Assembly: GCF_051903065.1 (NCBI RefSeq)
Contig: NZ_CP178438.1
DNA: 64,000 nucleotides
Direction: 5' to 3' (one strand)
Source of the DNA: Escherichia coli
GTDB lineage: Bacteria; Pseudomonadota; Gammaproteobacteria; Enterobacterales; Enterobacteriaceae
Within the stretch, counting starts at the first letter, position 1; each line of letters opens with the position of its first letter. A program made the position numbers. Below are positions 1-6,000 of the stretch, piece by piece.

Positions 1-3000
1 CTCCGCCACAGTCCGCTACGCCTTCAGTTTATGATCCACAACAGCAGGCGATGGTGATCACTTCGCTGTTTCCTTATGATCCACAACTCTGCTTTGAACA
101 CTTCTCGATTCAGATGGCACCCGGTGCAATAAGCGAATCGACGCCCCATGAGAAGGGGGTAATCGAACATGTCGTCGTCATTGATGGACAACTTGATCTG
201 TGCGTTGAGGGTGAATGGCAGAGCCTTAATTGTGGGGAAGGCGCTCGATTTGCTGCAGACGTCACGCATATCTATCGTAATGGTGGGGAGCAAACCGTAC
301 ATTTTCATTCCCTCATCCATTACCCGCGCAGTTAAGCGGGAAAACTATTTCGCAACGTCGCGCTTGTGGCTAAAATAGCCGCCATTTTTCAGCTACTGGA
401 TAAGAATGTGACCGTATCTTCTCATCGACTTGAACTGTTAAGCCCGGCACGCGATGCCGCCATTGCCCGCGAAGCTATTTTGCACGGTGCTGATGCTGTT
501 TATATCGGCGGCCCTGGTTTTGGTGCCCGTCATAATGCCAGTAATAGCCTGAAAGATATTGCCGAGCTGGTGCCGTTTGCCCATCGTTATGGTGCAAAAA
601 TTTTCGTCACGCTTAACACCATTTTGCATGATGATGAGCTGGAACCCGCGCAACGGCTGATTACTGACCTCTACCAGACCGGTGTCGATGCGCTGATTGT
701 TCAGGATATGGGGATTCTGGAACTTGATATTCCGCCGATTGAACTGCACGCCAGTACGCAGTGCGACATTCGTACAGTAGAAAAAGCGAAGTTCCTCTCT
801 GATGTTGGCTTCACGCAGATTGTGCTGGCGCGAGAGCTGAATCTTGATCAGATCCGCGCGATTCACCAGGCTACGGACGCGACCATTGAATTCTTTATTC
901 ATGGGGCACTGTGCGTGGCCTATTCGGGTCAGTGCTACATTTCTCATGCGCAAACAGGGCGTAGCGCCAACCGTGGCGATTGCTCGCAGGCGTGCCGTTT
1001 GCCATACACATTGAAAGACGATCAGGGGCGGGTGGTTTCCTATGAAAAACATCTGCTGTCGATGAAAGATAACGATCAGACTGCCAACCTCGGCGCGCTG
1101 ATTGATGCTGGCGTACGCTCCTTCAAGATTGAAGGGCGTTACAAAGATATGAGCTACGTGAAGAATATCACCGCCCATTATCGCCAGATGCTGGATGCCA
1201 TTATTGAAGAACGTGGCGATCTGGCGCGCGCTTCATCAGGTCGTACTGAACATTTCTTTGTTCCATCGACGGAAAAGACTTTCCATCGTGGTAGCACAGA
1301 TTATTTTGTGAATGCCCGTAAAGGCGATATTGGCGCGTTCGATTCGCCGAAATTTATCGGCCTGCCGGTGGGTGAAGTATTGAAAGTGGCGAAAGATCAT
1401 CTCGATGTTGCCGTTACCGATCCACTGGCAAATGGCGATGGCCTGAACGTGTTGATTAAACGTGAAGTCGTCGGTTTTCGTGCCAATACGGTCGAGAAAA
1501 CCGGAGAAAATCAGTACCGCGTCTGGCCCAATGAAATGCCAGCAGATTTGCACAAAATTCGCCCGCATCACCCACTAAACCGTAATCTTGATCATAACTG
1601 GCAGCAGGCACTGACAAAAACCTCCAGCGAACGTCGGGTGGCGGTAGACATTGAACTGGGCGGTTGGCAGGAACAATTGATTCTGACCCTCACCAGTGAA
1701 GAGGGGGTCAGCATCACGCATACGCTGGATGGGCAGTTCGACGAAGCCAATAACGCCGAAAAAGCAATGAACAATCTGAAGGATGGTCTGGCAAAACTGG
1801 GGCAAACCATCTATTACGCCCGCGATGTGCAAATTAATTTGCCGGGGGCACTGTTTGTACCAAACAGTCTGTTAAACCAGTTCCGCCGTGAAGCTGCTGA
1901 CATGCTGGATGCTGCGCGTCTTGCCAGTTACCAGCGCGGCAGCCGTAAACCGGTTGCTGATCCTGCGCCGGTTTATCCGCAAACGCATCTGAGTTTCCTC
2001 GCGAACGTTTACAACCAGAAAGCGCGTGAATTTTATCATCGCTATGGTGTGCAGCTGATTGACGCGGCGTATGAGGCACATGAAGAGAAGGGCGAAGTCC
2101 CGGTGATGATCACCAAGCATTGTCTGCGTTTTGCCTTTAATTTGTGCCCGAAACAGGCGAAAGGCAATATCAAAAGCTGGAAGGCTACGCCAATGCAACT
2201 GGTTAACGGCGATGAAGTATTAACGCTAAAGTTTGATTGCCGCCCATGCGAGATGCACGTCATTGGCAAAATCAAAAATCACATACTGAAAATGCCTTTA
2301 CCGGGAAGCGTAGTGGCATCCGTAAGTCCGGATGAGCTGCTGAAAACATTGCCGAAGCGAAAAGGGTAAAACGCCAGTTTTCTGGTTACTCACAACTTAT
2401 TGAATCTGCATGATATTGCCTGCCGGGTAAGGCGTTACGCCGCATCCGGCATCAAACGACTCAACGTTGTCCCGCTTCTGGTTTGCGCGATTTTTGCCAG
2501 TAAAAATGCTCGCGCAAACCTTCCGCCGACTCTTCCGCCACAGCACGCAATTCATCGCTGTCCGCTTCATGACGCAGCTGATGATCCACATTCTTTACCC
2601 ACACAAATTCATGTCCTTTGTGCCCTGCCATGAGTTGTCCTGAGAACAGCGCACACGTTAATAAGACAACCGATAACGCCTTCGTAAACATCCTGCCACC
2701 TTTTTCTTACCTTTTGCCGCTATGATGCCGATAGTTTCTTGAGGTTATTATTCAGTTTTGCAAATTAGCGCAAAGAAATTCTGGAATCTTCCTTCCTGAT
2801 TTTGCATTGCATTCTGCCGTTGCGGCGATTTAGTGCTATTTTCGAGCAAATTACGCACGGAGGTAAACACTAATGTTTACTTTGTTGATATACTCAGCGG
2901 CAGGGAGGCGATGTGAAACAAAGCGAGTTCAGACGTTGGCTCGAATCTCAGGGCGTCGATGTAGCGAATGGCAGCAACCATTTGAAACTCAGGTTTCATG

Positions 3001-6000
3001 GGATGCGCAGTGTCATGCCGCGTCCCCCCTGCGATGAGATTAAAGAACCATTGCGTAAAGCAATCCTGAAACAACTCGGTTTGAGTTAATCGCCAATTAA
3101 AAAGGTTAATGACATGCGAGAGACAGTCGAAATTATGCGTTATCCCGTCACTCTTACACCCGCGCCGGAAGGCGGTTATATGGTTTCTTTTGTGGATATC
3201 CCTGAAGCGTTGACCCAGGGCGAAACTGTCGCTGAAGCGATGGAAGCGGCAAAAGATGCTTTACTGACCGCATTTGATTTTTATTTTGAAGATAACGAGC
3301 TTATCCCGTTACCTTCGCCATTAAATAGTCATGATCACTTTATTGAAGTACCTTTGAGCGTCGCCTCTAAGGTATTGCTGTTAAATGCTTTTTTACAGTC
3401 AGAAATCACTCAGCAAGAGTTAGCCAGGCGAATTGGCAAACCTAAACAGGAGATTACTCGCCTATTTAACTTGCATCATGCGACAAAAATCGACGCCGTC
3501 CAGCTCGCGGCAAAGGCGCTTGGCAAAGAGTTATCGCTAGTGATGGTTTAATTACAGTTAACGAAAAGTTGTCATTTTTAACAACTGATATAGACTGCCG
3601 AATCATCTGCACATAATTACGATTCGATAATGAAAAAATACCAGCAGCTTGCAGAACAATTACGCGAGCAGATTGCGTCGGGTATCTGGCAACCCGGCGA
3701 TCGTTTGCCTTCGTTGCGTGACCAGGTGGCGCTTTCTGGCATGAGCTTTATGACTGTCAGCCATGCCTATCAGTTGCTCGAAAGTCAGGGATATATTATC
3801 GCACGACCGCAGTCGGGTTATTACGTTGCGCCACAGGCAATAAAAATGCCGAAAGTGCCAGTCATTCCAGTCACTCGAGATGAAGCAGTCGATATCAACA
3901 CTTATATTTTTGATATGTTGCAGGCCAGTCGCGATCCGTCGGTCGTTCCGTTTGCCTCGGCCTTTCCCGACCCGCGACTTTTCCCCCTCCAACAACTAAA
4001 CCGCTCGCTGGCGCAGGTAAGCAAAACCGCCACAGCGATGAGTGTGATTGAAAACTTACCGCCAGGAAACGCAGAACTGCGTCAGGCTATTGCTCGTCGC
4101 TATGCCTTACAGGGCATCACCATTTCTCCTGATGAAATTGTCATCACTGCCGGGGCGTTAGAAGCATTAAACCTCAGTTTGCAAGCGGTAACTGAACCGG
4201 GCGATTGGGTGATAGTAGAGAATCCTTGTTTCTATGGCGCGTTGCAGGCGCTGGAACGGCTACGGCTGAAAGCGTTATCGGTAGCGACGGATGTTAAAGA
4301 AGGGATCGATCTTCAGGCGCTGGAACTGGCGTTGCAGGAGTATCCGGTGAAAGCGTGCTGGCTGATGACTAATAGCCAGAATCCACTCGGATTTACCTTA
4401 ACGCCGCAAAAAAAAGCACAACTGGTGGCGTTGCTCAATCAGTACAACGTAACGCTGATTGAAGATGACGTTTACAGCGAACTTTATTTTGGACGGGAAA
4501 AACCGCTGCCTGCGAAAGCGTGGGATCGCCACGATGGCGTTTTGCATTGCTCTTCGTTTTCGAAATGTCTGGTGCCTGGTTTTCGTATTGGTTGGGTCGC
4601 CGCCGGAAAACATGCACGTAAAATTCAACGACTGCAGTTGATGAGTACGCTTTCCACCAGCTCACCGATGCAGCTTGCGCTGGTGGATTACCTTTCCACG
4701 CGCCGATACGACGCCCATCTTCGTCGCCTGCGTCGCCAGCTTGCGGAACGTAAACAACGTGCCTGGCAGGCACTGCTGCGTTATCTGCCTGCGGAAGTGA
4801 AAATTCATCATAATGACAGCGGTTATTTTCTCTGGCTGGAGCTTCCCGAACCGTTAGATGCCGGCGAATTGAGCCTGGCGGCACTGACGCATCATATCAG
4901 TATTGCGCCGGGTAAAATGTTTTCTACCGGTGAAAACTGGTCACGTTTTTTTCGTTTTAATACCGCGTGGCAGTGGGGAGAACGTGAAGAACAGGCGGTA
5001 AAACAATTAGGTCACCTTATTAAAGAATACCTGAAATAGATCCCCATTCAATTTCTCTCAGGTTGGGTAATATGAATTTCGAATAGCAGTCATATTTCCT
5101 AACTCCTTGACTATACTCCAGAAGATAACCTTACAGACGGCATAATGCGCGGTAGCTCACAACCTGATTAAATTTTCTCAGGGGCGAAGGTGTGCCTGCA
5201 AGCCGCCGTCTATGGTTAAACAAGGAGATATTTTTACGGCACGGCGGCTGAACAATTAATTACGACAGGAGTAAGACCTTATGAGCAAGACATTTGCCCG
5301 CAGCAGCCTGTGTGCGCTCAGCATGACAATAATGACCGCTCACGCCGCCGAACCGCCTACCAATTTAGATAAACCGGAAGGGCGACTGGATATTATCGCC
5401 TGGCCGGGATATATCGAACGCGGACAAACCGATAAACAATACGACTGGGTGACGCAATTTGAAAAAGAAACAGGTTGCGCGGTGAATGTGAAAACTGCGG
5501 CGACTTCCGATGAAATGGTCAGTCTGATGACCAAAGGGGGTTACGATCTGGTTACGGCATCCGGCGATGCCTCGCTGCGTTTGATTATGGGTAAACGCGT
5601 GCAGCCGATTAATACCGCATTGATTCCCAACTGGAAAACGCTCGATCCGCGCGTGGTTAAAGGCGACTGGTTTAACGTGGGCGGCAAAGTTTACGGCACA
5701 CCTTACCAATGGGGGCCGAACCTGCTGATGTACAACACTAAAACCTTCCCGACGCCGCCGGATAGCTGGCAAGTGGTTTTTGTTGAGCAGAATCTGCCGG
5801 ACGGCAAGAGCAATAAAGGCCGCGTTCAGGCTTATGATGGCCCTATCTACATTGCGGACGCTGCGTTGTTCGTTAAAGCCACTCAGCCGCAGTTGGGCAT
5901 CAGCGATCCGTATCAACTCACCGAAGAACAGTACCAGGCGGTGCTGAAAGTGCTGCGCGCTCAACATAGTTTGATCCATCGCTACTGGCATGACACTACC

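Follow-up and report, generated by a model that had tools for sequence, protein, structure and literature searches.

The hicAB toxin-antitoxin operon in a 64-kb stretch of Escherichia coli DNA and its uncommon R31M/H38P toxin allele

We analysed a 64,000-nt stretch of Escherichia coli DNA (contig NZ_CP178438.1 of assembly GCF_051903065.1; hereafter the window) that carries, at positions 2913–3551, what is almost certainly the chromosomal hicAB type II toxin-antitoxin operon of the species. This is the archetypal E. coli operon at its usual site between yncJ and ydcR, a known module that public genomes already annotate. Its HicA toxin differs from the K-12 protein at two residues (R31M and H38P). 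Judged from its sequence, the pair most likely still functions as a toxin-antitoxin module, although the toxin may be weakened.

Identity of the hicAB locus

The region 2700–3650 is 100% identical to E. coli 23CRST027 and 23CRST031 and 99.3% identical to K-12 MG1655, and 5,415 of 5,426 complete E. coli genomes match it. Over the entire window, only 3 single-nucleotide polymorphisms (SNPs) and 3 single-base indels separate our sequence from 23CRST027. The gene order is rlhA-yncJ-hicA-hicB-ydcR-ydcSTUV, with sutR on the rlhA/yncJ side. The toxin gene stands directly upstream of the antitoxin gene, both on the + strand, as in an operon, and the RefSeq coding sequences, converted to window coordinates (2913–3089 and 3135–3551), coincide exactly with the open reading frames (ORFs). 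The elements of the operon are as follows.

2903–2908, + strand: hicA Shine-Dalgarno (SD) sequence GGGAGG, 4 nt before the GTG; anti-SD duplex –11.1 kcal/mol
2913–3089, + strand: hicA, mRNA interferase toxin, R31M/H38P allele; GTG start, 58 aa, stop codon included in the coordinates; RefSeq WP_047625518.1
3090–3134, + strand: hicA–hicB spacer, 45 nt, containing an in-frame hicB ATG at 3114
3135–3551, + strand: hicB, antitoxin and autorepressor; 138 aa, with an N-terminal HicB-like domain and a C-terminal helix-turn-helix (HTH); RefSeq WP_001270286.1

The 58-aa hicA product, MKQSEFRRWLESQGVDVANGSNHLKLRFHGMRSVMPRPPCDEIKEPLRKAILKQLGLS, is identical at 56 of 58 residues to chain A of PDB entry 6HPB (‘mRNA interferase toxin HicA’; E = 3.4e-34). 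Among 1.84 billion cluster representatives searched, 112 were homologues at E ≤ 1e-3. Conservation was counted in 97 near-full-length family representatives (96 for H23); the catalytic H23 is present in 95 of 96 and G20 in 72 of 97, and the window allele retains both. The protein probably adopts the alpha-beta-beta-beta-alpha fold resembling that of a domain for binding double-stranded RNA (dsRBD), given its 97% identity to the solved chain 6HPB_A. Profile searches gave a less clear result. The match to Pfam HicA_toxin (PF07927) was significant (E = 8e-5) but, at 23.1 bits, fell under the 27-bit gathering cutoff, and the NCBIfam scan matched no model to either the window or the K-12 HicA. The identification of hicA is settled by its near-identity to the solved K-12 toxin.

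HicB as translated from the window is K-12 HicB, the molecule crystallised in 6HPB/6HPC and 6U0I. It matched 6HPB_B with E = 1.2e-86, and 6U0I_A was also matched. Both of its domains passed their Pfam cutoffs: HicB_lk_antitox (PF15919; N-terminal toxin-binding domain, partial RNase H) at 32.8 bits against 27, and HTH_3 (PF01381; residues 95–141 of a 145-aa form of the protein) at 31.4 bits against 23. Against NCBIfam, HicB produced nothing beyond sub-threshold noise from HipB and TrpR.

A sequence-only reading, made without database searches, had proposed a hicAB pair at these positions and called it a known module. The 6HPB_A identity, the K-12-identical HicB and the RefSeq annotation bear this out, and the same coding sequences already stand in RefSeq genomes. 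The frame disruption that it had named as a possible refutation is absent. Three independent complete genomes carry the identical hicA sequence, and 203 contigs carry the protein. Its proposed comparison with HicA-family profiles was passed only marginally, on significance and not on the cutoff.

The R31M/H38P toxin allele

The two substitutions in HicA each arise from a single-base difference from K-12.

3004, + strand: G>T relative to K-12, codon 31 AGG>ATG, R31M, in the beta2-beta3 turn
3025, + strand: A>C relative to K-12, codon 38 CAC>CCC, H38P, replacing the second conserved histidine

We scored the K-12 protein, each single substitution and the window protein against Pfam HicA_toxin.

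K-12 HicA: 30.9 bits
R31M only: 29.4 bits
H38P only: 24.6 bits
Window HicA (R31M and H38P): 23.1 bits
Gathering cutoff: 27 bits

Alone, R31M costs 1.5 bits and H38P 6.3 bits, and the Pfam shortfall is entirely due to these two substitutions. A profile-only pipeline would thus miss this hicA on score as well as on length.

An exact 80-mer containing both changes occurs in 3 of the 5,426 complete E. coli genomes. Among protein records, the double mutant was found on 203 contigs, H38P alone on 260 and R31M alone on at least 1,000. The R31M/H38P allele is real, circulating and uncommon. H38P also occurs in a K-12-like haplotype, that of strain 2014C-3011, whose nearest differences from the window are one marker 21 nt upstream of the H38P change and another 96 nt downstream. 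This suggests either recurrence of the mutation or a very short conversion tract.

Loss of hicA in E. coli

In 78% of the 5,415 matching genomes, the match spans 80% or more of the 951-bp locus. About 22%, including Nissle 1917 (L007, 1671–1907), are without hicA and the 5' part of hicB. For ~809 complete genomes (15%), only part of the hicA 80-mer is matched. The pattern of these partial matches fits a 22-bp deletion (window 3030–3051) that would frameshift hicA and leave hicB intact; Ec-042-T0 (L006, 514–668) has such a 22-bp deletion, a hicA annotated ‘frameshifted’ and an identical HicB. Overall, E. coli can do without hicA and frequently loses it.

Upstream region and proposed regulation

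Published work on the K-12 locus describes E. coli HicA as a small RNase of dsRBD-like fold that cleaves mRNA independently of translation, with the catalytic His23 at the start of beta2; the HicB N-terminal domain packs on the beta-sheet of HicA, blocking its active site, and the C-terminal HTH dimerises and binds an inverted-repeat operator, hicO (PMC11594946, PMC10865869, PMC6957337). The catalytic role of His23 in the E. coli protein is given in PMC11594946. The K-12 allele was reported to act as an RNase and to arrest growth, both effects being neutralised by its cognate HicB (PMC11594946, PMC10865869). Two promoters serve the operon: P1, farther upstream and dependent on CRP-S/Sxy, from which both proteins are made, and P2, which adjoins the start of hicA and which HicB represses and excess HicA derepresses. 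The short-leader transcript from P2 yields HicB only and restores antitoxin excess (PMC11594946, PMC10865869, PMC6957337). We found candidates for the operator and for P2 upstream of hicA.

2863–2880, + strand: candidate hicO, perfect inverted repeat GTAAACA-CTAA-TGTTTAC (7-4-7), for the HicB HTH dimer
2864–2894, + strand: candidate P2, with –35-like TAAACA at 2864–2869, a 19-nt spacer and –10-like TATACT at 2889–2894

The repeat was missed by a repeat search at minimum length 12 and detected by a custom scan, in which no other perfect inverted repeat with arms of 7 bp or more turned up between 2692 and 3140. Under a relaxed sigma-70 consensus, no sequence upstream of hicA matched better than the candidate P2 (9 of 12 positions), whose –35-like element overlaps the repeat. 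A stricter scan for promoters and terminators found, at its thresholds, neither a promoter ahead of hicA nor a terminator behind hicB. All five aligned E. coli haplotypes carry the same repeat, –10-like element, SD and GTG, and a relative (L010) has inverted repeats over its promoter as well. The repeat is probably hicO, the HicB operator at P2, and TATACT at 2889–2894 is the predicted –10 element of P2. A start ~7 nt after this element (~2900) would lie at or in the hicA SD, which fits the published P2 transcript giving HicB and not HicA.

In the window, then, the HicA RNase would be held by HicB, and HicB bound at 2863–2880 would repress P2. Excess HicA would derepress P2, and a HicB-only transcript would then start from ~2900.

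Functional state of the toxin

Several observations weigh against this picture of an intact, working operon. Relative to K-12, hicA has 2 non-synonymous and 0 synonymous changes and hicB 0 and 3, numbers too small for significance. Of the 97 representatives, 91 have H38, which makes it nearly as conserved as the catalytic histidine, and 77 have K or R at position 31, a mostly basic residue that R31M removes. The window allele is below the Pfam gathering cutoff and the K-12 allele above it. In gonococcal HicA, H29A, located in the same beta2-beta3 turn as R31M, abolished toxicity (PMC12297915). Loss of toxin function is tolerated in E. coli, because hicA is often frameshifted or deleted. On the regulatory side, a scan of 2692–2912 for a CRP-S (TGCGA-N6-TCGCA) or CRP-N site gave best matches of 6–7/10, none of them convincing (TGCCACCTTTTTCTTA at 2694, 7/10; TTTGCAAATTAGCGCA at 2757, 6/10), and the P1 activator site was not located. 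We infer the base-level placement of hicO and P2 from sequence patterns.

The points concerning the toxin can be read to mean that H38P and R31M have left HicA attenuated or dead, the locus being in effect hicB alone, encoding an autoregulated HTH protein, at an early stage of hicA erosion; we think this less likely than not. The conservation of H38 and of a basic residue at position 31 speaks for it, as does the Pfam cost, most of it from H38P, that leaves the double allele sub-threshold. The histidine at the H38 position was described as near the catalytic histidine in space (PMC3969222), and the residue that replaces it is a proline. That both hicA differences from K-12 are non-synonymous and all three in hicB synonymous, that H38P occurs on two different haplotypes, and that ~15% of complete genomes carry the frameshifting deletion with an intact hicB and ~22% are without hicA also count in its favour.

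Against it, gonococcal HicA H40A, which affects the residue equivalent to H38 (after beta3, close in space to His24), was still toxic (PMC12297915), and B. pseudomallei HicA was described as having no histidine at residue 40, yet is toxic (PMC3969222). In the window allele itself, the catalytic His23 and Gly20 are unchanged and the ORF, SD and start codon are intact. The allele persists, as its 203 contigs indicate, and one family representative (P0042) naturally has proline at position 38. The number of distinct protein variants per residue is also alike for the two proteins (~5.5 for HicA, ~4.8 for HicB), with no sign of general relaxation; the underlying counts of distinct sequences, 319 over 58 aa for HicA and 664 over 138 aa for HicB, are uninformative on relaxed selection of the toxin. 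When K-12 HicA was searched against PDB with phmmer (E ≤ 10), 6HPB_A was the sole hit, so H38 could not be mapped by sequence onto other solved HicA structures.

Taking both sides together, we consider a substantial weakening of the toxin by R31M/H38P possible but doubtful. A broader proposal, in our view unlikely, is that R31M/H38P is a naturally attenuated HicA within a species-wide, repeated disabling of hicA by substitution, by the 22-bp frameshifting deletion or by gene deletion, with hicB intact in both non-deletion routes. The occurrence of H38P on two haplotypes hints at recurrent selection against toxin activity and, further, that the near-invariant second histidine does something that alanine scans in a different species overlooked. 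A working pair, with or without some loss of toxin strength, remains our preferred reading of the locus.

Translation starts and overlapping reading frames

The hicB ORF offers two in-frame starts: ATG 3114 would give a 145-aa protein and a 24-nt spacer after hicA, and ATG 3135 gives 138 aa and 45 nt. Anti-SD pairing is weak at both (–3.4 and –3.0 kcal/mol, respectively). Translation from 3114 would be consistent with the ORF being open from that position, with an AAAGG 7–11 nt upstream whose anti-SD pairing slightly exceeds that of any sequence before 3135, and with the use of the 145-aa form in PDB 6U0I. However, RefSeq and PDB 6HPB use the 138-aa form, the Pfam HicB domain begins only at residue 10 of the long form, and the N-termini of relatives’ HicB proteins align at (I)MRYPV / MLSYP, without the MRETVEI extension, which is altered in one E. 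coli haplotype by a non-synonymous change (3121 A>G). We favour the start at 3135, as in RefSeq, and think it rather unlikely that 3114 is used instead. The 45-nt spacing given by the sequence-only reading is correct for the 3135 start; the strong SD that it reported holds for hicA and does not extend to either hicB start.

The GTG at 2913 is supported as the hicA start by its strong SD and by the same arrangement in L010. This 75%-identical relative has GGAGG-N5-GTG-AAG-CAG before the homologous N-terminus, with hicB 48 nt downstream. A second relative keeps the same hicA–hicB gene order, and several relatives with upstream-extended gene calls have V (a GTG codon) at the aligned first position.

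As the sequence-only reading had pointed out, a 58-aa gene with a GTG start escapes a 60-aa cutoff: our ORF listing omitted hicA at this default and included it once the cutoff was lowered to 30 aa. With 82 ORFs of at least 30 aa overlapping the first 8 kb, a 58-aa ORF alone is not above chance, and homology decides. The notion that the 58-codon GTG ORF is fortuitous and only hicB a real gene could draw on this abundance of short ORFs and on the sub-cutoff Pfam score, but it retains practically no probability and is refuted by the 56/58 identity to a crystallised and experimentally characterised toxin, by the 112 homologues with a conservation pattern typical of the family, by a strong SD, and by synteny with hicB that is kept in distant relatives.

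Two further ORFs overlap hicA, at 2873–3037 (+, 54 aa) and 2877–3074 (–, 65 aa); we treated both as chance ORFs. Frameshifted E. coli hicA variants (P0019, P0049) read into the frame of the + strand ORF.

Implications for annotation and for hicA biology

The locus offers a lesson in annotation, as a real toxin gene could be missed twice, by a 60-aa cutoff and by a sub-threshold Pfam score, with no NCBIfam model to catch it. The hicA of the window was recognised only through its similarity to the characterised K-12 protein. For biology, there is nothing new here on hicAB itself, and the allele is a minor, testable footnote. This rare double-substituted allele is a cheap natural variant with which to probe the second conserved histidine of HicA, and the loss of hicA with retention of hicB gives a handle on whether chromosomal hicA erodes in E. 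coli.

Other features of the window

Close to the operon, the mechanical ORF of rlhA (ydcP; +) starts at GTG 366 (667 aa) and the RefSeq gene at 408. On the other side, differences from K-12 are dense at 5012–5059, at the 3' end of ydcR and just past it, and ydcR encodes 469 aa here compared with 468 aa in K-12; the patch looks like a small divergent or recombinant segment.

Three other annotated genes fall under the 60-aa cutoff: yncL (10726–10821, –, 31 aa), the orphan toxin gene ortT (11016–11189, +, 57 aa) and sra (52343–52480, –, 45 aa). Their annotation was transferred from the near-identical strain 23CRST027, and the translations of ortT and sra were checked. yddM (48933–49217, –) is annotated as a HigA-family antitoxin; the gaps flanking it, of ~146 and ~227 bp, leave no room for a partner toxin, and it appears to be an orphan antitoxin.

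Between yncG and pptA, ~21031–27453 is an orphan type VI secretion cargo island with genes for a PAAR protein, VgrG (21334–23481) and an M23 metallopeptidase (to 25713), and a small ORF (to 26173), followed by an IS1 copy and an ISAs1 transposase remnant. The segment 20300–32000 is covered to at least 80% in only 10 complete E. coli genomes. At ~38895–41478 (–), espR1, the gene for a leucine-rich-repeat type III secretion effector, lies between narU and an ompC-like porin gene; beside it are two leucine-rich-repeat gene remnants, one annotated as a partial pseudogene.

The only Rfam match in the window is SECIS_3 at 44697–44755 (+, 84.3 bits), within fdnG (44115–47162). It marks the selenocysteine TGA of formate dehydrogenase-N, at which the ORF track splits fdnG into 44115–44702 and 44751–47162.

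Comparison with known systems

The closest counterpart is hicAB of K-12 (yncN-ydcQ; b4532-b1438; PDB 6HPB, 6HPC, 6U0I), which has the same locus, position, gene order and spacing; its HicB protein, promoter-proximal inverted repeat, SD and GTG start are all identical to those in the window. The differences are R31M and H38P in HicA, three synonymous changes in hicB and two SNPs in the upstream region (2733 and 2855).

Among reverse-order type II systems, mqsRA, higBA and rnlAB likewise have the toxin gene before the antitoxin gene. In these systems the antitoxin alone represses, and a second promoter was proposed for antitoxin-only expression (PMC11594946). They differ from hicAB in having unrelated toxin folds and antitoxin families.

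The HicAB systems of N. gonorrhoeae and B. pseudomallei share with E. coli the dsRBD-like toxin fold, the toxin-first gene order and a catalytic histidine at the start of beta2, after a glycine. Their HicB antitoxins are of the ribbon-helix-helix (RHH) type, whereas E. coli HicB carries an HTH, and the motif of their toxins is G-S-H, as against G-x-x-H in the E. coli subfamily.

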